Of a DNA stretch of 64,000 bases, positions 519 through 63,376 are shown piece after piece. The notes beneath the pieces were generated by a model. That model was not told the DNA's origin. It saw nothing but the letters and a program-made list of their open reading frames with translations, and searched no databases. Made by a program: the position numbers and the translations under genes. The first letter of the stretch is position 1. Each line of letters opens with the position of its first letter. This DNA is from a bacterium (GTDB lineage: Bacteria > UBP18 > UBA7526), in the NCBI GenBank assembly GCA_030615855.1, contig JAUWYL010000003.1:2384-66383 (forward strand), read 5' to 3'.

Positions 519-640
519 GACATCCTCGTTTCACTTAGAGTTTGTTAGTTTGTTAGCGCGCTCACTTCGTTCGCTTTAGTTGTTAGTTAAAGGATTTTAC
601 TAACTACTAAAGGGCGAAGCCCGTCCTAACTACTAACCAA
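519..640. repeat. palindromic intergenic element built from gtttgttagtt ... aactaactactaa k-mers
   Basis: The left arm k-mers are reverse complements of those on the right arm. Lies in the mlaF-mlaE spacer. Confidence 0.6.
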
Positions 641-1411
641 CTAAAATAAGGCAGCGGTTAGAAAGTAATCGGCAGCCAAAATCATGACGCAGGAAGTAAC
701 CACTGAAATGGTAGTTGCTCTTCCTACGCCTTCTGCTCCTCCTTCCGTCTTGAATCCCTCATAACATCCGATAATGGTGATAATTGCTCCGAAGACAAAG
801 GCCTTTATCAAGGCAGAGGAGATATCATTCATGGTCAGGGCTTCTATGGTGCCATCTATATACTGTCGAGAGCCGATACCCAGTTTACGCACCCCGATGA
901 AATAGCCACCCGCAATGCCTATGGCATTGGCATAGATAGTAAGTATCGGGGTCATAATAACCCCAGCAATGAACCTGGGGACGACGAGGTACTTAATAGG
1001 GTTGGTGGCTAAGGTCTCTAAGGCGTCTATCTGTTCGGTAACCTTCATGGTCCCCAGCTCTGCGGTAATCCCTGCCCCTACCCTTCCGGCAAGCATTAAA
1101 GCGGTCAGGACCGGACCCAGTTCCCGGACCATGCCCAAGGCTACTCCTCCCGCTACAATACCCATGGTCTCAACGAACTTGGCCGCATGGCCTCCCTGAA
1201 GGGCAGAGACCATTCCAATACAGAGAGCAACCAGGCTCACCACAGGAAAGGATTTTATTCCAATCTCTATCATCTGATTGGTAATATTCTTAAGGCCCAG
1301 AGGTGGCCTCACCATCCAGACCAAGGTCCTGAAGAATAGGATGACCACCTCTCCCAGATGTCTCAAGATATAGGTCGTCCACTTGCCGATGAACTCAAAG
1401 AATCTTTTCAT
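641..1411 (-). CDS. mlaE: ABC transporter permease MlaE-like (phospholipid/organic-solvent ABC system)
   Basis: 256 aa multi-TM protein typical of the MlaE/Ttg2B family. Lies directly upstream of the MlaF-like ATPase. Confidence 0.8.
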   Translation of the reverse strand: MKRFFEFIGKWTTYILRHLGEVVILFFRTLVWMVRPPLGLKNITNQMIEIGIKSFPVVSLVALCIGMVSALQGGHAAKFVETMGIVAGGVALGMVRELGPVLTALMLAGRVGAGITAELGTMKVTEQIDALETLATNPIKYLVVPRFIAGVIMTPILTIYANAIGIAGGYFIGVRKLGIGSRQYIDGTIEALTMNDISSALIKAFVFGAIITIIGCYEGFKTEGGAEGVGRATTISVVTSCVMILAADYFLTAALF

Positions 1412-1561
1412 GCCTCACTTCCGTTCGGAGTGATCTGTGATCTGTGATCTGTGATCGGTTACTAAAGGTCACCAAGCAATCCGGCGAGCACCCCGACAGG
1501 TGTCGGGGGCGGGAGACCCGGATAGCCTTATTCTGTTCATTGTTCATTGTTCATTGTTCAT
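1412..1561. repeat. 5' leader with tandem gtgatct (x3) and ttgttcat (x4) repeats
   Basis: gagtgatctgtgatctgtgatctgtgatcgg and ttgttcattgttcattgttcattgttcattg read directly. Confidence 0.75.
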
Positions 1562-2675
1562 TGAGATAGATGCGGGGGACCCTCTCTGCAATCCTGCAGA
1601 CTATCTCATGGGGAACGGTATCTACCTTCTTCGCTATCCCCTCAACAGAGACCCTCTCCTTCCCCTGCTCTCCTATTAGAACTACCTCGTCGCCTACCTT
1701 GACATCGGGAACTTCACCCACATCTATGATCGTCTGGTCCATACAGACCCTTCCCGCGATCCTTACTCTCTTACCCTTTATGATAACTTCTCCTTTATTT
1801 GAAAGGAGACGATTATAGCCATCCTCATACCCAATGGGAAGGATGGCGATGGTGGTGTTTTTATTCGTAACATAGGTCTTTCCGTAACTTATAGTAGCAC
1901 CTTTCTTAACCCTCTTGAGATATGTCACCTTACTCTTAAGGCTCATCACGGGATGGAGGTCCAGGGATCTTGAGACATATTCTGAAGGATAGATGCCATA
2001 GAGGGCGAGTCCGGGCCTTACCATATTGAAGTAGCTCTCTGGGAAGTTTAGGACCCCGGCTGAGTTTGCCGCATGCCTTAAGGGAATATCTGCTTTCTCT
2101 CCTTTCAGTTTTTCTAGAACCTCTTTAAACCTTCTTATCTGCTCTTTAGTAAAGCTTTTATCCTCTTCATCCGCTGTTGAGAAATGGGTAAAGATCCCCT
2201 CCACTTCCAGTTCGGGAATCTTTACCACCTCTTTAATTAACTTCAGGGCCCTCTGGTAAGGAACCCCGGTCCTCCCCATCCCAGTATCTACTTCAATGTG
2301 GATCTTGAGCCTTTTCTTCAACCTCTTACATTCTTCTGCTAAAGCAAGGGCGATCTCTTTGGTGCATATCGTTTGGGTAATATCCTTCTCTATGATCCCG
2401 GATGCTTTCTCAAGCATGGTGGGACCCAGGATGAGAATGGCTGATTCGATCTCTTCTTTACGAAGGAAGAAGGCCTCAAAGGGAGAGGTTACACCAAAGT
2501 AATTCACCCCTTCCTTCTCCAGGGCCCTTGAGATCTGGACCATCCCATGGCCATAACCTTGGGCCTTAACGATGGCCATGATTCCAACATCTGGGCCTAC
2601 TCTTTTCTTAATCTCCTTGAAGTTATGGACCAAGGCACCTAAATCAATCTCTGCCCAGGTGGATCGGCTGTCCAT
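1551..2675 (-). CDS. alr: alanine racemase
   Basis: 374 aa. PLP-Lys motif region IMAIVKAQGYGHG. Overall architecture of bacterial Alr. Confidence 0.85.
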   Translation of the reverse strand: MDSRSTWAEIDLGALVHNFKEIKKRVGPDVGIMAIVKAQGYGHGMVQISRALEKEGVNYFGVTSPFEAFFLRKEEIESAILILGPTMLEKASGIIEKDITQTICTKEIALALAEECKRLKKRLKIHIEVDTGMGRTGVPYQRALKLIKEVVKIPELEVEGIFTHFSTADEEDKSFTKEQIRRFKEVLEKLKGEKADIPLRHAANSAGVLNFPESYFNMVRPGLALYGIYPSEYVSRSLDLHPVMSLKSKVTYLKRVKKGATISYGKTYVTNKNTTIAILPIGYEDGYNRLLSNKGEVIIKGKRVRIAGRVCMDQTIIDVGEVPDVKVGDEVVLIGEQGKERVSVEGIAKKVDTVPHEIVCRIAERVPRIYLNEQ

Positions 2676-2819
2676 TTTCCCTCACTCTGTTCGGGAGTTA
2701 ACAGTTTACCCGTCCCGACATCCGTCGGGACTGTTTACCGTTTACCGTAAACCGTTCCAGCCAGAGGCTGGTCCGCCTTTGGCGGAAACCGTAAACCCCA
2801 TCTTGCCTCGCTTATCAGA

Positions 2820-4181: not shown

Positions 4182-4317
4182 CTCTTACCTCCTTTTATAC
4201 ACGGATTATCACGGATTGTTTACGGATTCGCACAGATTAAAAGTAAATTTTAACTTTTGGCTTCAGTGTCTCAGATTAGTTGTCAACTAACAGTATTTTA
4301 GCCAGTCAGACTATTTA

Positions 4318-5527: not shown

Positions 5528-5813
5528 TCTCTTTCCTCCTCTAACACGGATTTTTTCTTATTGCTTATTGTGTGGGTAGAAACCACGGATCAGCACGGAT
5601 TTAGGACAACGCGCTTCGCTTACCTCGTCTAAATAGGAACCTTTCGCTAATGCCCAAGAACCCTGTTTTATTCGCTCTGCTCAGAAAATGAGTCAAGTAA
5701 GTTGTCTCTTTTATTCGCTTCGCTCATAAAATAAAGAGTAAACAAGGTTCTGCCAAAAGCAGGTTCTTATTTATCCGTGTCTATCCGTGTTGTAATCCGT
5801 GTCTATCCGTGTC

Positions 5814-6675: not shown

Positions 6676-6689
6676 AAGGCCTCTTTTCG

Positions 6690-6806
6690 GAGTAACCAGT
6701 AACCAGTTTACAGTTTTTGAAAGAAGTAACCAGTTACCAGTAACCAGTTCTTTACTGTAAACTGTTCGCTGGTTACTGTAAACCTCTATTCTACTATCTA
6801 TTCTTT
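6690..6806. repeat. MITE-like element with imperfect terminal inverted repeats (gtaaccagtaaccagtttacagt / actgttcgctggttactgtaaac)
   Basis: Termini shared with 32985..33245. Lies in the rpsF 5' region. Confidence 0.55.
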
Positions 6807-6823
6807 ATGTTAGCACACTAAGA

Positions 6824-7927: not shown

Positions 7928-8084
7928 GATAAGCCTCACTTCGTTCGGCAAGACGCAGATTCAGACAGATGTCTGCGGATTCAAACGGATAATTCGTCGA
8001 AAAGGAGTTTTCCGTCTGCATTCGCCACAATCCGTTTGCATCCTTTTTCAAAAATTAATATAAATAAAAATTGGCCAAGAGGCC

Positions 8085-8315
8085 GATGAGACAGGATACT
8101 AGGTGATTAGGAGATTAGGATTTGGAAACTGGGATATTTGGATATTAGGAACGCCTTTGTCCCCAATCCCCTAGTCCCCTAATCATCCATCCTCCGTAGC
8201 AGTTGCACTGCTACTGCGGAGGACGGGCCAAATCCCAGTCTCCCAGTCACCCAATCTCCTAAATTTACTAATCCACCTAATTATTCTGTTCACCGTTCAC
8301 TGATCACCGATCACC
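8085..8315. repeat. ~230-bp imperfect palindrome centred on hairpin tcctccgtagcagt-tgca-actgctactgcggagga
   Basis: Flanking arms (ttaggagattaggatttggaaactggg / cccagtctcccagtcacccaatctcctaa) are reverse complements. Lies between hppA and ychF. Confidence 0.55.
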
Positions 8316-8319
8316 GGAA

Positions 8320-10383: not shown

Positions 10384-10450
10384 CTCTCCCTCCCTTCGGT
10401 CGGAGTGATCTGTGATCAGTGATCGGTGATCTGTATTTTTTGTTCACGGT

Positions 10451-11020
10451 TCATGGTTCACTGACATTATATTTATTCATAGCGGGGATAATTCCTTCTT
10501 TCACAAGAAGGATCAGAGCCTCCCCTGCTCTATCTATCGCTTTTTTAACTAATAAATTTTCTTCTCTTGTAAAATTCTTAAGGACGTAATCTTTAGGATC
10601 TATTCTTTGAGAAGGCCTTCCAATCCCTATGCGCAAGCGAGGAAATTCATTACTTTTTAAATATCGAATTATGGATTCCAAGCCTTTATGGCCGCCAGAT
10701 GTACCTTTTTTCCTTATTCTTATTCTTCCTAAAGGAAGGTCGATGTCATCACAGACAATGATCAGATTCTTCAAAGGAATCTTCAGGCCTCTAACTAAGG
10801 AGGCCGCTGCCACTCCAGAGTTATTCATAAAGGTCAGGGGTTGGGCAAGAACGATCCTTTTCCTTCCTATCCTTCCCCTTCCCATAAGGGATTTATATCT
10901 TTTGGTCTTTAAGTCGACCTTTAGTCTTCTGGCCAGGGAATCGAGGACCCGGAAGCCTAAGTTGTGACGACTCTTCAGATATCTCTTCCCCGGATTCCCC
11001 AGGCCGAGGAAGAGAATCAT
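10451..11020 (-). CDS. pth: peptidyl-tRNA hydrolase
   Basis: MILFLGLGNPGKRYLKSRHNLGF. 4-bp overlap with upstream rplY. Confidence 0.9.
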   Translation of the reverse strand: MILFLGLGNPGKRYLKSRHNLGFRVLDSLARRLKVDLKTKRYKSLMGRGRIGRKRIVLAQPLTFMNNSGVAAASLVRGLKIPLKNLIIVCDDIDLPLGRIRIRKKGTSGGHKGLESIIRYLKSNEFPRLRIGIGRPSQRIDPKDYVLKNFTREENLLVKKAIDRAGEALILLVKEGIIPAMNKYNVSEP

Positions 11021-11775: not shown

Positions 11776-11796
11776 TCTTCCTCACTCCGTTCGGAT

Positions 11797-11882
11797 ACAC
11801 GGATTTGCACGGATTACAAAACGGATGAGCACGGATTAAATCAGTGCTAATCAGTGTAATAAAATCCGTGCTAATCAGTGCT
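11797..11882. repeat. cacggatt / aatcagtg k-mer repeat array upstream of rplY
   Basis: cacggatttgcacggattacaaaacggatgagcacggattaaatcagtgctaatcagtgtaataaaatccgtgctaatcagtgc. Confidence 0.7.
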
Positions 11883-12841
11883 TAATCAAAGAGGGAGCTT
11901 ACTGACTCTCCCTTGTAAATGCGTTTTATTGCCTCTCCTAAGAGCGGGGCAACAGATAGAACCTTTATCTTCTTGAGCCTCTTCTCCTTTGGCAGAGGAA
12001 TGGTATCAGTGATTATCACTTCCTTAATTACCTTCTCCTTTAATATCTCTATTGCTGGCGGAGAGAAGACCCCATGGGTGCAGGCAGCAGAGATCTCCCT
12101 TGCTCCCTCATCTTTCAAGGCCTTTACTGCCTTTATTAAGGTTCCCGCAGTATCTATGATATCATCGACAATGACCAGGTTCTTATTCTTTACTTCACCG
12201 ATGACATTCATCACTGTCGTCTTTCCCGATAGATCCCTCCGTTTATCAATGATGGCTAAAGGAGCCTTCAACCGCTTGGCATAGAACCTCGCCCTAGCTA
12301 CCCCACCAGCATCTGGAGCCACAACCACGAACCTCTTCTTCTTGAGATATCTGCAGATGCTTGGGGTAGCGAAGAGATGATCCACCGGGATATCGAAGAA
12401 GGACTGTATCTGAGCAGCATGTAGATCCATGGTAAGCACCCTATGGGCCCCAGAGCGGGCGATGAGGTTGGCCACCAGTTTGGCGGCGATGGAGACTCGG
12501 GGCTCCACCTTCCTATCCTGCCGGGCATATCCATAGTAGGGTAGAACAGCGGTGATCCTCTCTGCCGATGCCCTCTGGGCGGCATCGATCAAGAGCAATA
12601 GTTCCATCAGACTCTTATTCACTGGAGGACAGGTGGGCTGAAGAATAAAGACATCCTTTCCCCTTATATTCTCTAATATCTTGACATAGGTCTCCCCATC
12701 TGGGAACTGGGTGACCTCTGCTTTTCCTAAAGGAATCTTCAAATATCTGCAGATCTCCTTTGCTAACTCTGGATTGGCATTTCCCGTAAAGACCTTCAAC
12801 TTATCCTTCATCCCGTTTCCTCCTTTGCAATTATAACACAC
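11882..12841 (-). CDS. prs: ribose-phosphate pyrophosphokinase
   Basis: 319 aa. PRPP synthetase N- and C-domains, with PRPP-binding loop VDDIIDTAGT. Confidence 0.9.
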   Translation of the reverse strand: MCYNCKGGNGMKDKLKVFTGNANPELAKEICRYLKIPLGKAEVTQFPDGETYVKILENIRGKDVFILQPTCPPVNKSLMELLLLIDAAQRASAERITAVLPYYGYARQDRKVEPRVSIAAKLVANLIARSGAHRVLTMDLHAAQIQSFFDIPVDHLFATPSICRYLKKKRFVVVAPDAGGVARARFYAKRLKAPLAIIDKRRDLSGKTTVMNVIGEVKNKNLVIVDDIIDTAGTLIKAVKALKDEGAREISAACTHGVFSPPAIEILKEKVIKEVIITDTIPLPKEKRLKKIKVLSVAPLLGEAIKRIYKGESVSSLFD

Positions 12842-14281: not shown

Positions 14282-14323
14282 CTTTTACTCCTCAATAAAA
14301 AGTCAAAAGTCAAAAGTCAATAG

Positions 14324-14713
14324 TCAATAGTCTTTTTCCGATTTTGGAAGAAATTTTTCAGGATCGTTATGCATTACCCATAGCATAGAAATTATTTCCT
14401 GATAATCATTATCAATCTCGTGATATATGTCTTCATCCAAATAGCCATGCTGCAATGCATAATCAAGCCAATTTTGGGTTTCCTGTGCTTCTCCCATGGC
14501 ATCTACCATTTTGACCTTAAATGCTTTAGGATACATTCGTTTTGCCCACCCCTCAGCAATTTGACCGCTTACAGAACGGGAAGATCTTAGGGTCTGATCT
14601 ATAAGAGAATACCTTTCTTCCTTTGGCCAAGAACGAGTCAACTCATATAATCTGCAAGATAAAGCGAATGCTTTCTGCCATACCTTGAGATCACGAAACG
14701 ATTTTATTTTCAT
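14324..14713 (-). CDS. four-helix-bundle protein (23S rRNA intervening-sequence protein family)
   Basis: DLKVWQKAFALSCRLYELTRSWPKEERYSLIDQTLRSSRSVSGQIAEGW matches the conserved core of this family. Confidence 0.7.
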   Translation of the reverse strand: MKIKSFRDLKVWQKAFALSCRLYELTRSWPKEERYSLIDQTLRSSRSVSGQIAEGWAKRMYPKAFKVKMVDAMGEAQETQNWLDYALQHGYLDEDIYHEIDNDYQEIISMLWVMHNDPEKFLPKSEKDY

Positions 14714-14770
14714 TCTTACTCTATTTTCTGACTATCGACTAATGACTATCGACTAATGACTAATTGTAAG

Positions 14771-14841: not shown

Positions 14842-14997
14842 ACTCTTCCTTAAGGGCTCTCTCTTGAAAATCTTTAGAACCCTCTGATTACACAGATTTC
14901 AAAATGACTACACTGATTTTACTGTCGAAGTCTTAATCTGTGTAATCTATCTTTCAATCTTGTAATCAAAGATTTCTGACTTTTTCAGAAATCTTTT

Positions 14998-27953: not shown

Positions 27954-27969
27954 CCCTCTTTGAGAATTA

Positions 27970-29638: not shown

Positions 29639-29639
29639 T

Positions 29640-40591: not shown

Positions 40592-40620
40592 TTACGTTAA
40601 TCGGTTACGGTTACTTGTAT

Positions 40621-40735: not shown

Positions 40736-40751
40736 TTTAACCGGATAGCCT

Positions 40752-45020: not shown

Positions 45021-45085
45021 CTATTCATCTTTCCCTTATCTGTGATCTGTGTCCATCTGTAATAAATCTGTGCCAATCTGTGTTC

Positions 45086-45949
45086 TCAAAAGGCGAGGCC
45101 AAAGCCCAACCGATGGACTCCTTTCTCCGTTGCCCGGCGATACTGATAGGCATAATCTATCTTATAGTCTATTCCTCTCCTTGTTATGATCTTTATTCCC
45201 AATCCTCCTGTGGGATCATCGTGATAGCCTCCAGCCCGAAAGGCAAAGTACCTGCTTAGCCACCACTCCATACCAAAGGAATGCTCAAGTCCTACGAAGT
45301 TTTCTAAGTCATAGATATCGTAGGCGATGAGGATCTTCTTATGGGGTCGAAAGGCAATTCCTGGTCGCACATTCATCCTCCTCAATACCCCAAAGACTTT
45401 AGGCTCATTCACATCCTGAGCTAAGAGACCAGCGCTGAACCATCTTATCGGTCTATAGTGAAGGCCGAGGTCTAAGGAGAGATCATCTTCCGTCTCTTCA
45501 GAGACTCCGCTTGTCTTATGCCGGGCATCAATAAACTGGCCTCCCGCACCTATGGAGAACCCCCTGAAGATTTCCTTTCCCCAGGAAGCACCATACTGGT
45601 TTTCCGGCTCAGACCACCCTCTGCCTCTATAGCCGGCATTCAAGAAGTATAATCCCCAGGCACCATACCTCCTATCCGGCTCAGCATAGATTACCGTATC
45701 ATCATAATCTATCCTGTCCCTTTCTGCGTTATTCACAAGAGAACTAATCGAAAAGTCCCTCTTTTCTAATTGTGATAATCCCGCTGGGTTATAGTAGACA
45801 GCATTCGCATCATCTGCTACAGCAACCGCTGCCCCACCCATGCCCATCTGCCGGGTACCAACCTCAGCATAACTAACCGCAGTGAACAGTGAACAGTGAA
45901 CAGTGAACAGTGAAAGGACCAAGAGTAAAAATTTAAATATGTTCTTCAT
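45086..45949 (-). CDS. outer-membrane beta-barrel protein, FadL/OmpP1-like (paralogue of the N-domain of 43086..45020)
   Basis: 287 aa. MGMGGAAVAVADDANAVYYNPAGL. Ends in aromatic-rich RLGFGLAF. Same repeat-encoded signal peptide LSLFTVHCSLFT. Confidence 0.55.
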   Translation of the reverse strand: MKNIFKFLLLVLSLFTVHCSLFTAVSYAEVGTRQMGMGGAAVAVADDANAVYYNPAGLSQLEKRDFSISSLVNNAERDRIDYDDTVIYAEPDRRYGAWGLYFLNAGYRGRGWSEPENQYGASWGKEIFRGFSIGAGGQFIDARHKTSGVSEETEDDLSLDLGLHYRPIRWFSAGLLAQDVNEPKVFGVLRRMNVRPGIAFRPHKKILIAYDIYDLENFVGLEHSFGMEWWLSRYFAFRAGGYHDDPTGGLGIKIITRRGIDYKIDYAYQYRRATEKGVHRLGFGLAF

Positions 45950-46021: not shown

Positions 46022-49000
46022 TTATTTTCGTATTAACTTATTCGCTCCCCAAACCAATGGCTTCAATCCTGCTCTAACTACTGCCTTGAGTGGTTCTTTA
46101 TCTCGGATGAAGTCCGCAATCGGTGGCGAAATTTTACAGTAAGTAAGAACAAATGCCCGACCTAAGGGATTAGTGAGCAGATGCTGGTCTCGGAACTGCC
46201 GCAAAGCCATTATTTCAGGAGGACAGTTTAAAAAGTTGGTTAGTTGGTTAGTTTTATCCGTGCTAATCCGTGATTTTAATCCGTGCCTATCCGTGCAACT
46301 GCTGTAAGCAGCAGTAGCAATAAAGCATCCTCCACTCCCTCCACCACTCAGAGACTTGCCCACTGTGACCGTAGTCGTTGCCTCAGTGCTCGAGTTTCCA
46401 TCTTCAGCAATGGCCTTGATATAAATGGTGTAGTAACCTATAGGAACAGAGTCGCCAGAACTGTTCTTCCCATCCCATTTTGTAGAGAAACTATCTGCAA
46501 TATAATACTTATCTTCCCCTAAGGTTTTTACCACCCTTCCCCTTCCATCGAGGGCCTGAATGGTGACCTCAGACTCCTTATTAAGAGTGAAGGAGATCTT
46601 GGTATGTCTCCGATTGAGGTCGCTTCCATCCGATAGGAAGGGATCTTCAGAGACTCCTAAACCCCTGATTCCCACTCCAGAAGGCATATCCGCATTATTT
46701 ACCTTCCCTCTGGTAGGAGAGGAACAGACGCTCCAGTCACTATTTGCATTGGTATCACTTGAATCAGCGTCACGGGCGATGGAGTCATTAGCATCGACTG
46801 TAGTGCTATTAAAACAGTCAGATTCTGCCAGAGAAGCCCCAGCAATCTTCCATTGTTCAGGATCAGCATCTACTAATGCTTGGACATCTGCTTCCTCACC
46901 AGAACCCCACGTCCCACTTTGATCTGCCCAGCAAACAGCATCCTCAATATTCCCCAATCCATCCTTGAAGATTACCTGTTCATCTGTAGAGGTCAACCCA
47001 GTATCATGGGCCCAGATATTGATGATTCCATCCGAACCAGCAGTGAGTTCATCCATCCAGTAACTCATCCCATTAGTAAAGATCTCAATATTTCCCCTTC
47101 CTGTAGGAGCCCCGGTCCGTGAACCAGTTCCTGTGCAGTAGTAGGGAATACTTTTAGCCGACAGACGATCCAAACATTCAGTAGTCGGATGGTTATAGGG
47201 GTTGGAGCCGGTAGAGATGACGGCCTTATCCGGATAGACATAGGTGAGGAAGTTACTTGAGGTGGCATATCTAGCGCCATGATGGCCTACTTTTAAGATA
47301 TCGCTCGTTAATCCTATCCCATACTTACTGATCAGGTTCTCCTCCACCTCGAATCGGGGATCATTATCATGGCAGGCAGAGGATTCCGCATCACCAGTGA
47401 GCATAAAGGAGACATTCCCGTAGGTAAGGTAAATAACAATGGAACTATTATTCTTATAATCGGTTCCTTCCTCTTCAGTTGCTCCTGGCCAAGGACTGGT
47501 AGCATGGGCATTGAGCACCTTGGCAGTAATGTTATAGTCTTCATCCCAGGTATAGGTCTGGCCAACGGTGGGAACGATACCCGGAATATCATTGACATCT
47601 GAGATGGTTGGGTAACCCAACTCATTCTTTACCGCGGTAACAAAGGCATCGGTATAATAACTCTCTGGCTGGCCAGAGAGCCAGATGGCCTCTACTGTCT
47701 TATTATTTAAAACATCTGTCAGGTCACCATAATGGTCGCTATCCGCATGGGTAGCGACCATACGATGGACAGTAGTAGAGACACCCACTTTATCAAGATA
47801 GGAATCAACGATTTCCTTATTTGGGTTTCCTCCATCGATTAAGATATTTTCTCCTCCCGGAGTCTGAACAAGAATGGAGTCCCCTTGTCCTACATCAATG
47901 AAGGTGACGGTCATGCAGCCTGAGGCTGGCTGGAGGACTAAATATTCCCCGGTCTTTATTGTTGTTCCCTTGGCGATGGTCTTTATTGTTCCATCATCTT
48001 CAAAGTAGCATTCCCCGATATCTACTCCGCTTCCATCGCTGGTTCCATCAGCCTCACAATATAACTCTACCCAGTCCTTGCTGCCTGAAGCATTAAACGA
48101 TACCTCATTTATCTTAATGCTTACATCCAATTCTAAGGAAGAGGGGTTCTTCTTTCCCTTGGTAGGGGTAGTAATAAGATTCCAATCGCTCTCCTTATGG
48201 GTATCCGTTGCTCCAGAAGCATTATCTCTTCCTAAAGACTTTCCCTTTGCCCCACTCGTCCAGTTGGCAGACTGGCCTTCCTGAGTCTCATTACTGTAGG
48301 TATCCTCATCCCCGGCATCGCCAATCCATTGACGGGGACTGAGACTATCATCCGCTATCCTGTTGAAGGCCGTACGCTGGGTGCCTGCCCAGGTGCCATC
48401 CCTCTTGGCCAATGATACAGCATCGATGATGTTTCCCGAAGGATCCTCAAGGATAATGACATTATCCGTTCCGGTAAGACCAGAATCCGTGGAATAGAAG
48501 TCACGATAGCCATTCCCATTGGTATCGCTATCCACCTCATCCGCAGTAGGGTCCTCCGGGTCATCCCTGAGACGAAGGACGATATACTCATCATCAGACA
48601 TAGTATAATCTGGAAAGGTCTTGATATAGGCGCTTCTTTCCAAGACTCTCCAGGAACCGATATTCTGGGTTGTTCCCGAGACATTATGGAACTCAATCCA
48701 CTCTGGGGTATCCTTGGTAGCAATCTCATTAATCAATATACTGCCTGGGTCTCCCTCATCTGGAGCAGTAGTATTTGTTGCTTTCGGTGACCCTCTTTCT
48801 GTGGCCCCGGCATCCCAGTTAGTAGTTCCTTCTTCATTGGCAGTATACCAGTTCTTGGCCTGCGTACCATCCCCGGGGGTGCTGCGACGCTCCATAGAAT
48901 ATTTCTTATCATTGTCACCTGCTAAAGGTGTTGAACTATCACCAGCGGTATCATAAAGGATATCGCCATCCGTGTAGAGTTTTATCTGAAGAGTGCTATT

Positions 49001-51083: not shown

Positions 51084-54000
51084 TTCTCTTTGCTCCCCAA
51101 ACGATCGGTTTCAGATAGAATCTCACCATTGCTTTCAGTGGTTCTTTATCTGAAATAAAGCGAGCAACCGGTGGACTAAAGCGACAGTAGAACCTCACAA
51201 ATGCTTTTCCCAGGGAATTAGTCAAGAGATGCTCATCCCGAAATCTCTGCAAAACAATAATCTGTGATCTGTGTGAATCCGTAATAAATCTGTGTGAATC
51301 CGTGCCGCTGCTATAAGCAGCGGTAGCGATGAAGCATCCCCACTTCTCTGAGGTGCTCTTCGCCTCTTCCTTGGCAGCTGCCGGGGTGGTAATGGTAACC
51401 ACGGGAGTGCTCACCTCGGTGTCCGGACTTGATGAATATACCCCCCACAACTGTATGTAGTAGGTCGTTCCTCCTGAGAGACCAGTAATGGTGGTGGAGG
51501 TCGTCGCCCTGGTAGCCAGATCAACATCATTACTATCATCCCAGTAACTGGTTGCCTTGTTTTCCACTTCAGTTCGATTGGTCCCATAATAGATGCGGTA
51601 GCGGAGAAAGTCCTTATCTGAAGGAGTGAAGGGCGTCCAGGTCAACTTGCTACTTGAGGATTTCGATTCGCTCTCCTGGACATCGGCCAAACCCACAGAA
51701 ACAGAAGCAGTACCAGAAGGAGAAGTCGTCTCATTACCAGCGTTATCCATTGCCCATATTTTAGCATAGTAGATGTTAGGTGAGGTTAATCCTGTAACGA
51801 TAGTTGAAGAGGTATCTATATCTGTCTCTTCCTTTTTAGTGGCTCCTTCTGGCGAACCCGTATTGTCCTTATCCTGCACCTTTGTCTGATCCTTCCCATA
51901 CCAGATTTCATAGTGGCTGAAGTAGCTCTCTGTGCAGGCCGTCCAGGAGAAAGTAATACTCGTTGAAGTAGCAGAACTTGCCTTGAAATCCGCCAGACCA
52001 CTGGGAACCACATTATCTATGCCAAAAGGAGTACCAGGAGAAGAAGCCGTATCCCCCATATAACCATAACTACCATCATCCGCGCCATCATTGGCCTTCA
52101 TCCTGAAGTAAACCGTGTCATCTTCAGTAGTGGGAAGATCAGTTGCCGTAGCCCAGGTGATGGTCTTCTCGCCTGGAGTGCCGATAGATTCCTCGGAGGC
52201 TGGGTCAGTAGAAGCGGTATGCCAATCTATTTCATCTCCGGTGGTAGAATACTCTGGATACCCAGTGCAGGAGTGACTATCGGCATCTATCAAGGTATAG
52301 GAAATCTCCCAGTCTCCTCTTTTCCAACTGGGAACCGGTGACTCAGTAATGTTTATTAAAGGAAGATTATTGTCGGTTACCTCAATACTAATACTGATAG
52401 CCGAGGTATAACCTGCACTTGAGTCGGCATCAATCTGTATGGTTTCCCCGGTATCATAATATATGCCGCTATAACTGGCCACCCCACTCACAACGTCTTC
52501 TGTAAGGGCGTCATTAGGTAATAAGGCACCAGCACCGGCGTGAAGTGCTAAGATAACGGTACCTATGGCAGCGGGGGTCACATTACCATAGGTATCCTTT
52601 ACGCTCACCTTTGGCTGGGTAGCAAAGGGGAAACCGACGATGGCCGCATCCGATGGTGGAGTGGTAAAGTCTAATTTATTGGGATTATCAGGATCGACAG
52701 CAATATTCGTTGAGGTCCCATTAATTGCTCCATCATCGGCCTTAATCCAGGGGGTCTCTCCTGCGTTATAGAGAGTGAAACCAGATACCGTTGCCACACC
52801 ATTCGCGAAGGTCTGGTTCCCATCAGCCGGCTTGGTCGGGTCATTAACGCCTATGGCAGTAGCGTTCCAGGTCCAGGTAATGTAATGAGAACCAGTATAA
52901 TCGGTGACCGTAGTATCGTCTTGCCTCTGAGCAGTAACCGTAACTGAGAAAGTAGTTCCCGCAGTCTCAGTTCCAGAATGCTCGGTCACTACACTGAACT
53001 TGGTGGCCAACCAACCACCTGGGGGTTCTCCGTCAGAAAGCCAGGCAGCACCCAAAATCAATCTTTCGCCAGTAGCCGCATGTCGGGTTAGTCCTATAGC
53101 TATCCCGCCATTAGTAGTCCCTTCTCCAGCGCCGATCACATAGGAGTGGCTGATTTTTGTCCAGTCAGCACCATCTAAATCGGTGACACCCGACTCATCT
53201 ATACCACCAGCATGCTCAACCCCTACTTTTACCTTACCAGTTCCTTTTGCCCAGACCACCACATAATAGGTTTTGCCCACTTCTAAATCTTTACCTAACT
53301 GCTTTAGATAACGCTCATCAGAATATGGTTCATGGGCAAAAGAAGCCTCCCCGACTAAAACCTCATCTGGGTCAGTAGTTCTTTCACCTCTATTGCCCCA
53401 GGTGTATTCATCAGGATCACTACCGGTAATATCATCAAAAAATTCGTTGTATAGGTAATTCTCTCCTGCTTCAGGATGGGTCTGGAAGGTCTTGATATCC
53501 CCATATGCATGATCGCTGTCATATTCTACAACGCCTCTAAACTGATATTTGGTCTTTTTACTAAAACTCGGAGTAGCGGTATGTGAGCCAGCTACACCAT
53601 AAGGTGTGTAGGTTGTCTCATTATCGGTTATGCTGCCTGAACTTTCCCCCCATTGAAAGTAGACATCAACAGAAATCTCCTCCCCCATGGTAAAATCACA
53701 GTTAAGGGTAGCGGTAGTAGTCCCGATGCTTGAGGCATCCTGAGTGGTGACTGTAGGATAAGGGTAGGTGCCTGTAGTAGTCCAGATAATTTCGTCCGTA
53801 ATGACCTTTCCCTCTGACCTATTGCCGATACACTTAAATACCACATTATTGCTTTCACTTATGGCAGTCAATGCCCCAGCCACCAGGGACCCATAGGTAC
53901 CATCAGTGGCTGAGTAATAAGTCTGATCAACAGGAAGAGCACCGACATCGATTACCGTTGTCAGATCAGAGTAGGCACCCCCATCAATACTATATTGGAA

Positions 54001-55273: not shown

Positions 55274-55466
55274 TTTTCTTCACCCTCGAAAAAAGAGGCA
55301 AATATGCCATATGGCATATTTTGGTAGCAATAAGAGTCAGGCCCGCCTTCGTCCGTCCGTCTCCGACGGGCCGAACTTCGGCGGGTAAGCATTTGACAAT
55401 AAATAAGTTCTGGAAAAGTCTTCTTTTCTTCATCCCGCACCTTTTGATAAGTTGATTAGTTGACAA
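55263..55466 (-). pseudogene. remnant 5' end of a paralogous large surface-protein gene
   Basis: Minus strand tatcaaaaggtgcgggATGAAGAAAAGAAGACTTTTCCAGAAC closely matches the ribosome-binding region and start of the 1094-aa gene (ATGAAGAAAAGAAGACTTTCCCAGAAC) and the upstream tatcaaaaggtgcagg of the 1422-aa gene. The reading frame degenerates after ~65 codons. Confidence 0.35.
55296..55317. promoter_or_regulatory. perfect 22-bp palindrome AAATATGCCATATGGCATATTT 20-45 bp upstream of the ParB-like gene
   Basis: Read directly. The position is consistent with an operator or parS-like site, but the function is inferred. Confidence 0.4.
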
Positions 55467-55827
55467 GTTGACAAGTCAATAAGTTTGCAACCGCCTATAC
55501 GCAAATTGTTACAAATTTTTTTGTTACATTTTTAAGTGCAATATAAAAAGACACTTTTATTAAAGATTTTCCACAATGGAGATGGGCTCCTGACCAGTTC
55601 ATTATTTATCTTCCTGGATGAGAGCAAACAAGATAGGCCTCACTCCATTCGGCAAAATCCTAAATTCTAATATCGAAACTCTAAACAATATCTAAATTCA
55701 AAATTCAAATGTTCCAAACCCGTTTAGTTTTGGATTTTTGTCATTTGAGATTCGGATTTGTTTAGGATTTAGTGCTTCGGATTTAGTATTTAACATTATC
55801 CAAATTCCGATGCCTCAAGGGTATCGA

Positions 55828-56313: not shown

Positions 56314-57131
56314 GGTTTTACCGCCCTCCCTAACAGTTGGTTGAATAAAAATACTTTCTCCAGATTTTCTGGATAAAGTTTTAGTCTTAGATACTTCCTT
56401 CGTCTATTCAATTTAAGATATTTTTCACTCCTCATCTTCCTATCTCAACCCTAGAATGGGGATCAGGTCCCATTGGATAGTAAACATCCAACGGGATAAA
56501 TCTTGACCCCGAAGGACAAGCCCCGAAGAACAAGTCTACGGGGTAAACCTACGGGGCTCTGCACCGTATGGTTCAGGGCGGGGCAGGCAAATCTTGAAAA
56601 GCGTAATAAAACCCTTTCTGAATCCTTCTTTTACAGTTATTTCTTGCTCTTTTGAGTCTAAGCAGATACTTAAGGTCTTTTAAATCCTGCGGTTTTCCCG
56701 CACTACGTTTCATCCTAATGGAGATCGTTACCCTATGTCCTTTTATAGATTACTGAAAAACCACTGAATCCACTGAAATCACAGAAAATTTGTTATTCTG
56801 TTTCTTTATTTTTTAATATCTTTTGTTCAGTGTTCTCAGTGCCCTCTGTGGTTAAAGACTTTTCAGCGGTCTCTTTTAATAATTTGAGAAGGCCTTCAGT
56901 GTCCACTTTTCTTCCTGTTTATTGACAGGAAGGCCCGCCTGCCGGCGGGCCCTGTAGATATGAGAATCATCAACAGGGTAGAGTGATCATTTACCCCGCT
57001 CGCTCCATTAGAGATAGGAAACGCTTCTTTCTGATTATCTTACTGAAAGCGTTTCCGTCATCTCTATTCAAGCTGCTTAGCATCTCTAATGGAGGGAATG
57101 GCGAAGCCCGTCTATCTGCCAAGATCACCGT

Positions 57132-58391: not shown

Positions 58392-58488
58392 CTTTACCTC
58401 CTTTTATACACTGATTATTACTGATTGATTACGGATTAGCACGGATAATCCGTGCCCATCCGTGTTGTTATCCGTGCCTATCCGTGTA

Positions 58489-60942: not shown

Positions 60943-61094
60943 AATTCTCCCTCCTTTCTTAAACGCAGATTTCTTTATTCTGCTTACTGCGTGGGATTAA
61001 ATACACGGATAATCACGGATAAAACCTTAAACACGGATTATCACGGATTGGTTACGGATTCACACCCCATACCACTCCGACTCTAAGTTGGAGG

Positions 61095-61140
61095 CTACGG
61101 GGCCCTGCACCATATGGTTCAGGGCGGGGCAGGTAGATCA
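61095..61140. repeat. 45-nt conserved element (ctacggggcyctgcaccrtatggttcagggcggggcagg), second copy at 56545..56590
   Basis: Two near-identical copies in unrelated intergenic regions. Confidence 0.6.
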
Positions 61141-61443
61141 CAGATACTGGATACTTGATTCTAGATATTAGGAAACTCAGATAGACGCCAGACAATCTGG
61201 CTAGATTCTTCGTAATACTCAGAATGTAGGATCGGGAAACTGGGATATCAGGCACTTCGTTTCAATGCAAAGTGCAAAATTAACTGCTCACTCATTTTGC
61301 ATTGTTGTTTATTCCCAGTTTCCTCCGCCCCATCCGCCCCGGAGGGGCGAGACCTCGCCTCTGGCGGGCAATCCCCTAATCACCAATAACTGATAACTTT
61401 CTCCTGTAACCTGAGGCCGGCAGCCTGTAGCCTGAGGCCTGAA

Positions 61444-61956
61444 TTACTCTACAGTAATCAGGTCCCTCCACTTCGCCAGGGTCTTGGGCCCCACTCCCTT
61501 TGCCTTGGTGATATCATCAATACTGGTGTAGGGTCGGGCAGCGATGATTGCCTGGGCCTTAGCCGGGCCCACTCCAGGAAGGGCCTGAAGCTCACTAGCA
61601 GAAGCGGTATTGATGTTGATCTTTACTCCCGGAGCAAGGGGCTTCTTCTTGGCTGCTTTGGGCTTGCCAACCACCTCTGTGGCACCCTCTACAGTAATCA
61701 GGTCCCTCCACTTCATCAGGGTCTTGGGCCCCACTCCCTTTGCCTTGGTGATATCATCAATACTGGTGTAGGGTCGGGCAGCGATGATTGCCTGAGCCTT
61801 GGCCGGTCCCACCCCGGGAAGGCTCTGAAGCTCTGCACTGGTAGCGGTATTAATGTTCACCTTGGCCTGAATTAGGGTCGCTCCAAAGATTAGAAGACCT
61901 AAAGCAAGCACCAGAATCAATCCTTTTTTCATTCTTCTCACCCCCCTTCTAAACAC
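61444..61956 (-). CDS. secreted ComEA-like protein with two HhH DNA-binding domains
   Basis: Signal peptide. Two units NINTATSAELQSLPGVGPAKAQAIIAARPYTSIDDITKAKGVGPKTLxKWRDLITVE, near-identical at the DNA level. Confidence 0.7.
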   Translation of the reverse strand: MFRRGVRRMKKGLILVLALGLLIFGATLIQAKVNINTATSAELQSLPGVGPAKAQAIIAARPYTSIDDITKAKGVGPKTLMKWRDLITVEGATEVVGKPKAAKKKPLAPGVKININTASASELQALPGVGPAKAQAIIAARPYTSIDDITKAKGVGPKTLAKWRDLITVE

Positions 61957-62196
61957 AGATTTTCACAGATTTTTTACAGCTGGGCACAGATCACAGATCT
62001 TGAAAGCCTGCTGAATTTTGAAAATTGTTTGTATCTTGTTTCTTGGTGTTTGTATCTTGTCAACGGTTTTCTATTCTCTCTTTTCTCTACTGATTTCCGT
62101 TCTCTGCCAACTGATTTCTGTTTTCCCTGCCCCGTAGGCTTGTCCTTCGGGGTAACAACCGATTTCTATTTTTATAGTCAATCACCGATCACCGTA

Positions 62197-63180
62197 TTAG
62201 AACCATCTCTTCCTACGACAGTAGACGTAGATCAGGAATCCGGTTAAGCAGATAATGCCCCAGGCGAAGAGGTAGCCGAGGCGCCACCTGAACTCTGGGA
62301 TAAAGACAAAGTTCATCCCCCACAGTCCGGTAAGAAAGGTCATGGGGATGAAGATAGTGGCCACAATGGTCAGTACCTTCATGGTATTGTTCATCCTATG
62401 AGAAAGAAGGGAGAGATGGGCCTCCATTACTGAGGTTAACAACTCCCGAAAGGTCTCGATCATACTATGGATCCTGATCAGATGATCGTGGATATCCCTA
62501 TAGTAGACGGCCATCTGAGGATGAACGAAGGGATAGTCCCTTCTGCAGAAACGGGCGATGAGCTCTCGTTGGGGAGCCATGACCTTCCTCAGGGAAATAA
62601 TGTGTCTCTTATAGGAAAAGACCTTATTTAAAAACTTCTCTGGCTTAGCAGTAGAAACAGTGTCTTCCAATTCATCTATCCGATCCTCAATGAGGTTCAG
62701 GATATAGAAGTAGTTATCCATAATGTCATCCAGAATGGAATAGAGGAGAAAGTCGCATCCCTTAGAAAGTATTTCAGGATTTTTCTTTAACTCTTCCATT
62801 ATGGTATTTATATTCCATATCTTCTCCTTATGTAAGGTGAGGATATAATTCTTTCCTAAGATAACGTCTATCTCTCGGATGCTCAAGGGCTCCTCCCCTC
62901 TCTCTTCCTTATCCTTATAGAAGTAGACAGAGTGCATGATCATAAAGAGGTAATCGGAGAACTCATCAACCTTGGGCTCTTCTTGAGGAACACGGCAGGC
63001 ATCGATCACCAGAGAATGGAGATAGATGGCCGCTCTTAAGAATTCAAAATCTTCTTCACTGGGATCGAAGAAGTCAAGCCACAGGACGTTCTTCTCATTC
63101 TTAAGAAGTTTCTTGACCTTCTTAAGGTCGATCCCGGTCTCTAACTTCTTACCTTCTCTTAGGAGAAAGGAAGTAATCAT
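62197..63180 (-). CDS. corA: magnesium/cobalt transporter CorA
   Basis: 327 aa. C-terminal two TM helices with GMN motif (LWGMNFVFIPEF). Confidence 0.85.
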   Translation of the reverse strand: MITSFLLREGKKLETGIDLKKVKKLLKNEKNVLWLDFFDPSEEDFEFLRAAIYLHSLVIDACRVPQEEPKVDEFSDYLFMIMHSVYFYKDKEERGEEPLSIREIDVILGKNYILTLHKEKIWNINTIMEELKKNPEILSKGCDFLLYSILDDIMDNYFYILNLIEDRIDELEDTVSTAKPEKFLNKVFSYKRHIISLRKVMAPQRELIARFCRRDYPFVHPQMAVYYRDIHDHLIRIHSMIETFRELLTSVMEAHLSLLSHRMNNTMKVLTIVATIFIPMTFLTGLWGMNFVFIPEFRWRLGYLFAWGIICLTGFLIYVYCRRKRWF

Positions 63181-63376
63181 CTCTCAACCCCTAATCATAG
63201 ATTATCAGAACATCAGAATGAGAATTCAGGAATCAGATTTCAGATTCAATCTGACCTTCTGATAACTGACCCTCTCCATCTGATACTCTGGTAATCTGAT
63301 ATTCTAATTATACGAGCAGCGCCCGTCTGGCCGCCGGACAGGCAACCGCAATCAATTAACGTAACTTGCAGCCTAT

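Follow-up and report, generated by a model that had tools for sequence, protein, structure and literature searches.

This work describes short tandem repeat arrays that occupy most of the spacers between genes in a 64-kb stretch of bacterial DNA, here called the window (64,000 nucleotides of contig JAUWYL010000003.1, from an uncultured bacterium of the UBP18 lineage). The explanation we prefer, in which we place about as much trust as doubt, is that the arrays are slippage-prone cassettes of 7- to 11-nt repeats that spread, undergo replacement, and have proliferated into many word families, of which at least one is linked to a conserved putative protein. The arrays are nonrandom, recur as families, and form palindromes at the level of the DNA. 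They differ in copy number and in presence between relatives, occur in frame within genes, and, in the case of the word CACGGAT, recur in distant genomes.

Arrays are dense and recur as families

With Tandem Repeats Finder (TRF; periods of 5 to 12 nt), 1078 of the 8098 intergenic bases of the window fell within arrays, compared with 28 ± 21 (maximum, 70) in 30 dinucleotide shuffles. Within open reading frames (ORFs), arrays covered 740 of 55,902 bases (198 ± 55 in the shuffles), and part of this excess stems from over-extended ORF starts. The arrays are therefore predominantly intergenic, making up 13% of intergenic bases versus 1.3% of ORF bases. At least one array was present in 22 of the 34 intergenic regions of ≥40 nt (2.1 ± 1.3 in shuffles; maximum, 5), and about 5 further spacers hold degenerate k-mer hairpins that TRF missed. 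When only stringent arrays were counted (≥3 copies, period of 6 to 11, score of ≥40), the window gave 3.75 per 10 kb versus 0.32 pooled over 89 unrelated prokaryotic loci (∼1.4 Mb; median, 0), a density ∼12 times that of the background. An initial annotation, made from the letters of this DNA, had proposed that the intergenic repeats are denser than is usual in bacteria and belong to recurrent families rather than to local low-complexity sequence. All of its repeat examples are present at their coordinates, and the shuffles, the unrelated loci, and a self-BLAST of the window bear the proposal out. An assembly artifact was ruled out by the like arrays found in independent assemblies of relatives (from JGI, Logan, ENA, and NCBI metagenome-assembled genomes [MAGs]), and CRISPR arrays were set aside since the periods are far too short.

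The array units are mostly 7 or 8 nt long, and those of the CACGGAT/CACAGAT/CACTGAT family are spaced at 10 to 11 nt. The most enriched spacer 5-mers, CGGAT (38 versus 9.8), CAGTG (27 versus 8.4), CTGAT (36 versus 15), and GGATT (42 versus 19), are common to many spacers. Self-BLAST returned families of just 2 or 3 copies each, with heterogeneous arms: 1425 and 10400; 4185, 58394, and 61027; 5773, 58448, and 46256; 6687/6751 and 32976/33176; 31501 and 40632 (109 nt); 33014 and 63305 (inverted); 33122 and 61226 (inverted); 56549 and 61095; and 45038, 51260, and 61998. Among the 89 unrelated loci, the sole one with window-like density (4.1 per 10 kb) was L023, from an uncultured Candidatus Peribacteria MAG (CAYGQA010000016.1), with arrays such as GACTCTG x12.4 and GGCTGAT x6.6; the multiword heptamer syndrome may thus occur in other uncultured lineages as well.

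Many spacers share a common layout. Read in gene sense, a stop codon is followed by an array, a short GC-rich hairpin (e.g., CCCCGACA..TGTCGGGG or GTAGCAG..CTGCTAC), the reverse complement of the array, a Shine-Dalgarno (SD) block, and the ATG. The conserved SD block is of two types: CCGAAC(G/A)(G/A)AGTGAGG, with ∼5 tight copies plus variants, and GTATAAAAGGAGGTAA (also given as AAAGGAGG). Other spacers hold direct arrays only (e.g., 4182-4317, 14282-14335, and 14714-14770), and many arrays end at the SD sequence or a few bases before it. A loose regular expression for the CTCCGA..GAGG block was not enriched in the window (15 versus 12.6 ± 2.9); just the tight 15-mer recurs, about 5 times. An anti-SD hairpin formed by this block was rejected, as the pairing, worked by hand, was inconsistent across copies.

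Cassettes differ between relatives

The closest named relatives of the window proteins are found in Omnitrophota MAGs for DnaB (63 to 66% identity) and Elusimicrobiota MAGs for the membrane pyrophosphatase (PPase; ∼70%); closer relatives are known from metagenome contigs only. Those compared here by locus number are L082, L084, L117, L118, L119 (GCA_030641045.1, the closest MAG), and L121, which are 75 to 95% identical per protein and thus roughly of genus level; L120, whose DnaB is 87% identical to that of the window; and L081, a family-level relative with 60 to 92% protein identity and synteny over 22 kb. All genus-level relatives have arrays, whereas L081 has 0 stringent arrays in its 22 kb.

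Spacers that measure 67, 106, 286, and 368 nt in the window are 11, 17, 27, and 41 nt long in L081. The PPase upstream spacer (window 10384..10465) is 11 nt in L081 and holds other elements in L082 and L117. The L25 leader is 17 nt in L081; in L117 it keeps, in rearranged form, the CACGGAT/CACAGAT word family and an identical SD block. The SSB-S18 spacer (window 5528..5813) is reduced to 27 nt in L081, and the spacer between the PPase stop codon and its terminator (window 8060..8319) measures 41 nt in L081 and 94 nt in L082, and L118 differs there as well. Upstream of Alr (window 2676..2819), other words are present in L119/L121 and L084, and no array words in L120 and L081; in place of the element upstream of S6 (window 6676..6823), L082 has an unrelated module. 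Operons that L081 keeps compact and conserved, such as S6-SSB-S18-L9, are interrupted by arrays in the window.

Two sites display intermediate states. In the DnaB leader, one repeat unit is present in 1 copy in L119, ∼6 in L121, and ∼9 in L084, an in-place change of copy number, while the window has a CACGGAT-type leader instead of this unit. In L119 and L120, Alr and MlaE are overlapping genes (ATGA); in the window, 139 nt lie between them, and an inserted cassette of ∼160 nt, which includes the part now ending Alr, replaces 13 nt, with no target duplication visible at this insertion. Elements also turn up elsewhere in relatives. In L117, the ATCAGA element (63181-63310 and 33014-33106 in the window) is found upstream of the PPase gene, a nonorthologous site; in L118, the CGAAGAATCTAGCCAG element is found downstream of that gene; and in L082, the region upstream of S6 holds the hairpin plus AATCCGTG module (window 60990-61100). 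Within the window, 32976-33222 consists of one element nested within the loop of another. These sequence comparisons support the view that the elements behave as units of gain and loss between relatives.

Upstream of the L9 gene, L119 (positions 1-209) carries a 43-nt unit in ∼4.5 copies that is related to sequence within the 5528-5813 hairpin of the window, so that tandem repeats of longer units vary between relatives as well. The arrays leave their mark on the available data: short-read assemblies are broken by them, most of the closest relatives having been recovered as mere 2- to 6-kb contigs, and start-codon calling is misled.

Arrays within coding sequences

The arrays within ORFs sit in leaders, signal peptides, or a domain linker, and four genes carry them in frame. 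Two CFI-box-CTERM paralogues carry CACGGAT/CACAGAT arrays in frame at the same position, after ..AAYSS, and the coding sequence at these inserts itself forms a small hairpin. A third paralogue (23532-26360) is without the insert, and the domain match in the gene with the array at 46234..46300 takes 92 residues for a 69-position profile. While the coordinates given for the cacggatt family in the initial annotation are correct, the arrays at 46252-46292 and 51261-51304, which it had counted as intergenic, thus lie in frame within these two genes. In two adjacent outer membrane protein genes, (TCACTGT)x5 is translated as SLFTVHCSLFTV, within the signal peptide's hydrophobic core. These two signal peptides are in part encoded by the ACAGTGA arrays at 44947-44981 and 45880-45914. 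A literature search on CFI-box-CTERM and on Omnitrophota repeats found nothing relevant.

Hairpin symmetry is a property of the DNA

The mean folding z-scores of the array segments were −2.93 and −2.90 on the two strands, compared with −0.07 for the coding control, and 18 of 38 segments had a z of <−3 on each strand. The window therefore contains many long imperfect hairpins, as had been noted from the letters, although attributing this form to most elements was too strong, the others being direct arrays only. Within helices that would use Watson-Crick pairs alone, mismatches read on the sense strand were of the G.U type in 9 cases and of the A.C type in 10. Equal z-scores on both strands and equal numbers of the two mismatch types indicate that the symmetry of the hairpins is a DNA property, and on these grounds a general RNA-level structure was ruled out, with two local exceptions. 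In the 31501/40632 pair, the sense strand retains each of the 39 predicted pairs in both copies (9 via wobble changes), and the other strand retains 28. The hairpin at 29550..29640 is stable on the gene-sense strand only, via G.U pairs. Mismatches between hairpin arms were purine.purine in 47 cases versus pyrimidine.pyrimidine in 20, which agrees with the purine richness of the sense strand and suggests that the arms decay under strand-biased mutation.

The arms also have a polarity. In all of the ∼7 long hairpins that pair a G/T-rich with a C/A-rich arm, the G/T-rich arm comes first on either strand, and the opposite order is absent. The same one-way polarity is seen in CACGGAT pairs (22:0) and in the pairs of phage locus L229, described below.

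Terminator-like sites barely exceeded those in shuffles (30 versus 22.5 ± 4.8, 30 versus 23.2 ± 5.9, and 28 versus 18.4 ± 4.7), none of the gene-strand sites corresponds to an array hairpin, and the array hairpins are without T-runs. Genuine terminators stand apart from the arrays, at 33264-33298 and, as a GGCC..GGCC hairpin with T-run, near 8040; the latter follows the PPase gene, downstream of the variable palindrome, and relatives have kept it. Near-consensus sigma-70 promoters lie in array-free spacers (20816-20844, 32734-32762, 38433-38461, and 54371-54399). The hairpins stop just short of the SD sequence, and predicted SD accessibility was slightly above that with shuffled upstream sequence (+0.035; P = 0.024). 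In an Rfam 15 search, just a tRNA-Gln and a group I intron passed, and the array hairpins gave only subthreshold, microRNA-like chance matches.

CACGGAT arrays in tailed phages

The pattern CACGGAT-N3-4-CACGGAT-N3-4-CACGGAT was searched for in IMG/VR contigs and retrieved 83 viral stretches with ∼106 arrays, up to ∼7 per contig, in sequences of 45 to 69% G+C. Control patterns gave 6 stretches for a scrambled word with the same spacing, 6 for GTGATCT x3, and 18 for AGTAACC x3. The consensus of the phage arrays is TTTTAAC-CACGGAT-GAA-CACGGAT-GAA-CACGGAT, with an outer boundary, ..TTTTAAC before the first CACGGAT, in which 86 of the 106 arrays have C at position −1 and 82 have A at position −3. 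The tested contigs are genuine tailed phages, several of them Mu-like, with MuA/MuB-like proteins, terminase, portal with Mu F, and capsid or tape measure proteins. The CACGGAT phage contigs (IMG/VR loci L122 to L201, e.g., L190, L142, L128, and L170) are rich in diverse heptamer arrays (2.9 per 10 kb).

Most phage CACGGAT arrays are intergenic. Where two arrays form a pair, the arrangement is convergent (CACGGAT..ATCCGTG) in 22 cases and reversed in 0, as in the window. Complete copies have arm words in common but differ in their interiors, with spacers of 13 to 170 nt. No target-site duplication (TSD) was seen at 17 complete pairs in phage loci, and the flanks of paired arrays extend the palindrome (GAAAC..GTTTC) rather than forming duplications; a TTAA/YTAR target site was accordingly rejected, the flanks being an outward palindrome extension and not direct repeats. 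Unpaired phage arrays had no bias in orientation relative to genes (25 sense and 15 antisense; P = 0.15). In L190, all five arrays are on the gene strand; the four examined at sequence level are intergenic, three of them are followed within ∼25 nt by an SD sequence and start codon, and one is abutted by the upstream stop codon.

Another phage contig, L229 (IMGVR_UViG_3300025441_000052), found via AGTAACC arrays, carries some two dozen arrays over 11.7 kb (TRF gave 45 rows, many of them overlapping), mostly as mirrored pairs. Its words ACTGATT, CAGTGAT, and AGTTATC overlap both the vocabulary of the window and the published TAACTGA repeat. In L229 and L230 (3300038417_000269), mirrored heptamer arrays lie at almost every gene junction and use ATCAGTA/ACTGATT, CAGTGAT, and AGTTATC (the reverse complement of TAACTGA). 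A literature search for the CACGGAT word returned unrelated primer sequences only.

Relation to known repeat systems

The closest match among known classes is that of short tandem repeats, which comprises the cyanobacterial short tandemly repeated repetitive (STRR) sequences, the Xanthomonas GGGAATC repeats, and the Beggiatoaceae TAACTGA repeats. This class is already known; the window differs from its known members in the lineage, the density (most spacers, also within operons), the number of word families, the regular mirrored cassette with its SD block, and the link to phages. STRR and long simple sequence repeats, as summarized in later papers, have 5- to 11-nt units, mostly heptamers, and a sporadic distribution (Mazel 1990 and Mrazek 2007 via PMC4679880 and PMC4692102). 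By these summaries, the window resembles them in its tandem, heptamer-dominated, mostly intergenic arrays of several word families per genome, in a copy number that varies between close relatives, and in some of its words (CCCAGT, xCAGTxx). The features that define STRR, head-to-tail units of 5 to 11 nt beyond chance, mainly between genes and varying in copy number between relatives, are all found in the window. It departs from STRR, as there summarized, in belonging to a noncyanobacterial, uncultured lineage, in its much higher density, with arrays in about two-thirds or more of its spacers, in the mirrored arms of about half of them, and in the many arrays that directly abut the SD sequence.

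The Xanthomonas GGGAATC repeats number ∼186 arrays per 5-Mb genome, ∼70 of them as two convergent arrays capable of forming a stem-loop (Rehm et al. 2015; PMC4692102). Intergenic heptamer arrays, convergent pairs, and length variation between related species are common to both systems. However, Xanthomonas uses one G-rich, quadruplex-prone word and keeps 83% of its sites between species, whereas the window has dozens of words in 24 to 69 arrays within 64 kb, and most orthologous sites differ between genus-level relatives (PMC4692102). In the Beggiatoaceae BOGUAY genome, 169 direct sets and 1 inverted set of TAACTGA lie mostly just upstream of start codons (MacGregor 2015; PMC4679880). As there, direct heptamer repeats of the window appear to lie a few bases upstream of starts, some overlap or lie within ORFs, the downstream genes have no functional pattern, and horizontal spread is suspected; related words (ACTGATT and CTGATAACTGA) are present in the window and in L229 (PMC4679880). 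The window differs in its many words and common inverted pairs and in its canonical SD sequences, which are rare in the repeat-bearing spacers of BOGUAY (PMC4679880). Many window arrays end at the SD sequence, but they are of many words and, in about half of the spacers, have mirrored arms. TAACTGA itself occurs as 8 single copies in the window, with no doublet on either strand.

The initial annotation had proposed elements akin to repetitive extragenic palindromic (REP) sequences or MITEs (miniature inverted-repeat transposable elements). REP sequences and REPINs are extragenic palindromes with an unpaired GTAG or CGTC tag and are mobilized by REP-associated tyrosine transposases (RAYTs) (PMC3733652; also PMC3116915). 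Inverted pairs that fold into larger hairpins between codirectional genes, the lack of TSDs, and occasional copies within genes are shared with the window (PMC3733652, PMC3116915). The REP proposal nonetheless fails on several counts: there is no high-copy or conserved 20- to 40-bp palindromic unit, the arms are tandem k-mers, and the tag accompanies just 1 of 31 perfect GC-rich hairpins, which are themselves without a shared consensus. The CACGGAT arms are flanked by ..AAC rather than GTAG/CGTC, and no Y1/RAYT protein or other transposase is found among the proteins of the 64-kb window. Classical MITEs were rejected as well. While the mirrored arrays amount to terminal inverted repeats, these are tandem k-mers rather than a unique terminal repeat; no TSD was found at 6676-6823, at 32976-33222, at the Alr/MlaE insertion, or at the 17 phage pairs; interiors and lengths are heterogeneous; and no autonomous parent element was seen for the cassettes.

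Rickettsia palindromic elements are reportedly of 100 to 150 bp and of defined sequence, and are said to insert in frame into coding genes and to be translated. The window likewise has translated, in-frame palindromic repeats, but as short k-mer arrays at signal peptides and a domain linker. DNA uptake sequences, considered in view of the ComEA/ComEC neighborhood, are an improbable account, as the clustering and word diversity of the arrays are unlike those of known uptake sequences.

Weighing the explanations

According to the explanation we prefer, replication slippage would alter copy number in place, as we infer from the differences between relatives at the DnaB leader. Whole cassettes would be inserted, replaced, or nested without TSDs, an outcome visible in the comparisons, by a putative enzyme or recombination route. 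They would be tolerated where genes are left unbroken, that is, between cistrons, in gaps between stop codon and terminator, in signal peptides, and in the linker of a C-terminal sorting domain. In polycistronic mRNA, the palindromes would form long hairpins ending just 5′ of the SD sequence, with what appears to be a small effect, largely neutral or mildly modulating, on mRNA stability, processing, or translation. The CACGGAT family is not explained by neutral slippage alone. The same word, 10- to 11-nt spacing, and convergent polarity in phages of 45 to 69% G+C point to a conserved sequence-specific protein, a putative mobilizer or binding factor. A broader proposal, that CACGGAT arrays are the recognition element of a sequence-specific system common to an uncultured bacterial clade and tailed phages, is speculative and on balance rather unlikely. 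Several points count against the preferred explanation. It is drawn from one 64-kb window of the source genome, and the relatives are of genus level (75 to 95% protein identity), so some of the apparent replacement could be ordinary fast spacer divergence. The sense-strand cases at 29550-29640 and 31501/40632 hint at some RNA-level constraint. No mobilizing enzyme and no insertion signature were found, and the lack of TSDs rules out common cut-and-paste transposition. Pure slippage, for its part, leaves mirrored arms, fixed polarity, and the reuse of one word across distant genomes unexplained, such that a second component is needed.

We regard as unlikely, though a serious candidate, the possibility that the cassettes are nonautonomous REPIN/MITE-type mobile elements whose mirrored arrays serve as binding platforms for a transposase encoded elsewhere, with an HUH/Y1 enzyme (IS200/IS605/RAYT-like) as one candidate. 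Single-strand transposition of the HUH/Y1 type leaves no TSD and places the element next to a short fixed sequence. The TSD-less complete copies are what it predicts, and the defined outer boundary, strictly convergent arms, presence/absence differences, nested case, wide G+C range of the CACGGAT phages, and in-frame gene copies like those of Rickettsia all agree with it. Yet the 64-kb window encodes no transposase of any kind, the GTAG/CGTC tag is all but missing (1 of 31 hairpins), and copies share arm words without a shared interior; dozens of unrelated words would each require a cognate enzyme, and direct-only arrays and in-place copy-number changes are not products of transposition. Rather doubtful is the idea that the arrays are cis-regulatory binding platforms, in which CACGGAT units one helical turn apart are bound by a protein used by host and phages and each word marks a coregulated gene set, as proposed for TAACTGA. 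Among the candidates, a winged-helix regulator of the OmpR/PhoB type would act on DNA, and a CsrA-like protein would recognize ACGGAU motifs in RNA beside the SD sequence. A 10- to 11-bp spacing of direct 7-bp repeats typifies OmpR/PhoB and SARP sites; the motif A(N)GGA is a feature of those for CsrA. The period, the conservation of one word across genomes of very different G+C, the many arrays ending a few bases before the SD sequence, the gene-strand arrays of L190, the family retained at the orthologous L25 leader of L117, and the sense-strand pairs kept in 31501/40632 fit such platforms. On the other hand, unpaired arrays show no gene-orientation bias, the SD-adjacent array of the window usually reads AUCCGUG on the mRNA and is without GGA, most orthologous spacers bear different words in relatives, the downstream genes are functionally unrelated (DnaB, S18, L25, and transporters), and the words are too many for a few regulators. 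Both ideas could be partly true. A role as terminators or insulators between co-oriented genes, raised in the initial annotation, is very improbable. Its support lies in the significant hairpin potential of about half of the spacers and, for insulation only weakly, in hairpins that end just before a slightly more accessible SD sequence; termination is contradicted by the missing T-runs, the near-shuffle counts, the separate canonical terminators, and the interruption by arrays of operons that L081 keeps compact.

Features and genomic context of the window

Table 1. Repeat arrays and palindromic elements of the window (z, folding z-score; dG, folding energy; single pairs of z-scores are for the two strands)
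Position	Strand	Feature	Evidence and remarks
519..640		GTTAGTT/AACTAAC inverted arms around GGGCGAAGCCC mini-hairpin	z −3.5 (+), −2.5 (−)
1412..1565	-	Alr-MlaE intercistronic cassette	(CAATGAA)x4, GC hairpin 1491-1508, (GATCACA)x4, CTCCGAACGGAAGTGAGGC before ATG; supplies Alr C terminus with stop codon and MlaE SD; GTGATCT array recurs at 10400-10431
2676..2819	-	GGTTTAC/GGTAAAC arrays and three small GC hairpins, upstream of Alr	z −4.2/−3.6
4182..4317	-	Direct CACGGATT array, period 10-11, ending at DnaB SD	No hairpin, z ∼0; 53 nt 88.7% identical to 58394-58446
5528..5813		286-nt hairpin, CACGGAT 5′ arm/ATCCGTG 3′ arm, SSB-S18 spacer	z −7.3/−5.2
6676..6823		GTAACCAG palindromic element upstream of S6	Self-BLAST; ends recur at 32976-33005 (96.7%) and 33176-33222 (91.5%)
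8060..8319		260-nt compound palindrome of 8-mer arrays TAGGAGAT, ATTTGGAT, GTCCCCTA, TCCCAGTC, TCACCGA	dG −113.7; z −7.5/−7.7; arrays flank GTAGCAG..CTGCTAC hairpin; between PPase stop codon and conserved terminator
10384..10465	-	(GATCAC[ACT])x4 then CTCCGACCGAAGGGAGGGAGAG, upstream of PPase gene	Self-BLAST
11776..11890		CACGGAT/CACTGAT palindrome then CCGAACGGAGTGAGGAAGA, upstream of L25	z −4.2/−4.7
14282..14335	-	AAAAGTC x5 direct array upstream of GlmU	96% matches; no hairpin
14714..14770	-	TGACTATCGACTAA x2.4 direct array beside tRNA-Gln	
14842..14997		Two adjacent hairpins, CACAGAT/ATCTGTG-type words	z −6.9/−8.9
23397..23531		GGTTAGG-type G/T-rich arm paired with CCTAACC-type C/A-rich arm	z −5.8/−4.6
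27965..28054	-	AATCGGTG x4.1 and TTTCTCCC x4.5 arrays, 5′ leader of T2SS-K-like gene	Likely true start codon downstream of arrays
29550..29640	-	(GGCTACA)n paired with (GTGGCTT)n	z +0.1 (+), −6.3 (−)
30081..30229		CTTATTAA x5, related 8-mer arrays, and TAGCCGAC..GTCGGCTA hairpin	z −3.6/−3.7
31442..31645		GGTAGTGAGTAGTG-family hairpin then CTCCGAGCGACAGCGAGGGAGAG, upstream of T2SS-F gene	Self-BLAST; 109 nt 81.7% identical to 40632-40737
32952..33245		Composite: GTAACCAG element with ATCAGA/CGAAGAATCTAGCCAG element nested in loop; next to duplicated 33-nt T2SS-F leader plus ATG	33014-33106 matches 63305-63213; 33122-33166 matches 61226-61182 (self-BLAST)
37055..37244		GGATTAGTGTATTAGG arrays paired with CCTAATACACTAATCC arrays	z −2.5/−4.1
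38520..38695		CAGCCAGAGGCTG and CCGCC..GGCGG mini-hairpins and GTTTATTCGC x2.2	Hairpin words also at 2747-2790
40592..40751		Second GGTAGTGAGTAGTG-family hairpin copy	Self-BLAST, folding
44940..45085	-	(TCACTGT)x5 in signal peptide and ATCTGTG period-10 array upstream of gene	
45875..45920	-	(TCACTGT)x5 in signal peptide of neighboring outer membrane protein gene	100% identical over 34 nt
46234..46300	-	CACGGAT x4 and AACTAACC x2, in frame within CFI-box-CTERM domain	
51255..51310	-	CACGGAT/CACAGAT array, in frame, second CFI-box-CTERM domain, same position	
55440..55827		TTGATAAG x5 array, GGATTT/AAATCC palindromic k-mers, CCGAATGGAGTGAGG block	z −3.9/−2.2 for 55640-55827
56490..57131		45-nt element copy 1 (56549-56587), CACTGAA/TTCAGTG k-mers, GC hairpins	94.9% to 61095-61133
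58392..58488		Compact CACGGAT x4/ATCCGTG-AATCAGT hairpin ending at SD	z −6.4/−4.9
60943..61443		CACGGAT x4.7, 45-nt element copy 2, inverted CGAAGAATCTAGCCAG element, CCTGAAG array	
61957..62196		CACAGAT, TTGTATC, and related arrays	61998-61952 matches 45038-45084
63181..63376		ATCAGA/TCTGAT palindromic element and GC hairpin	z −4.9/−4.6

The window has a G+C content of 46% and ∼53 genes, all but one on the minus strand. Plus-strand GC skew is negative in all 2-kb segments but one, and the sense strand is purine rich over the whole window, which appears to lie on one replichore with its genes co-oriented with replication. Housekeeping genes fill the first 20 kb (MlaE, Alr, DnaB, L9, S18, SSB, S6, YchF, PPase, Pth, L25, PRPP synthase, GlmU, SpoVG, IspE, and PEPCK). 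The remainder consists of a type II secretion (T2SS)/type IV pilus (T4P)-like cluster and numerous proteins of the ComEA-like helix-hairpin-helix, OB-fold, and ComEC types. A CFI-box-CTERM domain ends three of the proteins in this region, one of 1422 aa with a ComEC/metallo-beta-lactamase region and two others that are likewise large. ComEA-like and OB-fold proteins are unusually concentrated beside the T2SS/T4P-like genes, over 38696-63958 (ORFs 38696-40591, 40752-41207, 41247-42656, 59818-60942, 61444-61956, and 63377-63958, and ORF 43086-45020, which is fused to a PorV-like domain). This cluster may constitute a large extracellular DNA-binding or DNA uptake apparatus.

Some further repeats were noted. 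The 45-nt element, CTACGGGG..CTGCACC(A/G)TATGGTTCAGGGCGGGGCAGG, has two 95% identical copies (56549-56587 and 61095-61133); it matched nothing in Rfam and nothing exactly in viral contigs, and the relatives retrieved carry no copy of it. At 42689-42832 lie two tandem copies of an 83-nt unit, identical over 61 nt, and the unit contains a GAGGGGGCAAGCGAAGCGCGCCCTC hairpin. Related hairpins centered on GCGAAGC/GCTTCGC occur in several spacers (42689-42832, 20093-20164, 5600-5640, and 6250-6290), and a motif of a hairpin followed by AACCTTGTT occurs at 5750, 15715, 20235, and 42747, one copy being within the ispE ORF.

Two features of other kinds were also observed. A 236-nt group I intron (38148-38383; Rfam RF00028, 81.9 bits) lies in the anticodon loop of a tRNA-Asn(GUU) gene at 38072-38458 on the minus strand. 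Its joined exons are called Asn(gtt) by ARAGORN, and the same tRNA, without interruption, is present in L081 at about 580-655. Group I introns of bacterial tRNAs occur in Leu, fMet, Ile, and Arg, and we know of none in a bacterial tRNA-Asn. In addition, a 1.5-kb segment, 31468-32951, is bracketed by a perfect direct repeat of 33 nt (31435-31467 and 32952-32984) that comprises the T2SS-F leader and ATGGCAG. This segment encodes a helix-turn-helix-nucleotidyltransferase/HEPN pair (32055-32678 and 31646-32065) with its own near-consensus promoter, and the strong terminator at 33264-33298 stands upstream of it. Judging by these features, the segment resembles a module of the toxin-antitoxin type that entered between gspE and gspF and duplicated its target on insertion.

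Implications

Were the CACGGAT arrays to prove part of a shared recognition system, that system could be a single-strand or TSD-less mobilizer of a new kind, or else a factor of the host that acts where cistrons meet. The many-word heptamer syndrome of the window, of its genus, and of phage contigs (L229, for instance) would in that case stem from the same horizontally transmissible process and not from passive slippage.

Arrays of 7- to 11-nt repeats have been known for 35 years in scattered bacteria, without an agreed origin or function. The lineage of the window is an extreme case, in which most spacers are occupied, even within ribosomal protein operons, and in which an array-free syntenic relative provides a natural control. 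Intermediates are visible, from 1, ∼6, and ∼9 copies at one site to a cassette between formerly overlapping genes. This lineage therefore makes it testable whether such arrays stem from passive slippage, from a class of TSD-less mobile elements, or from binding platforms.

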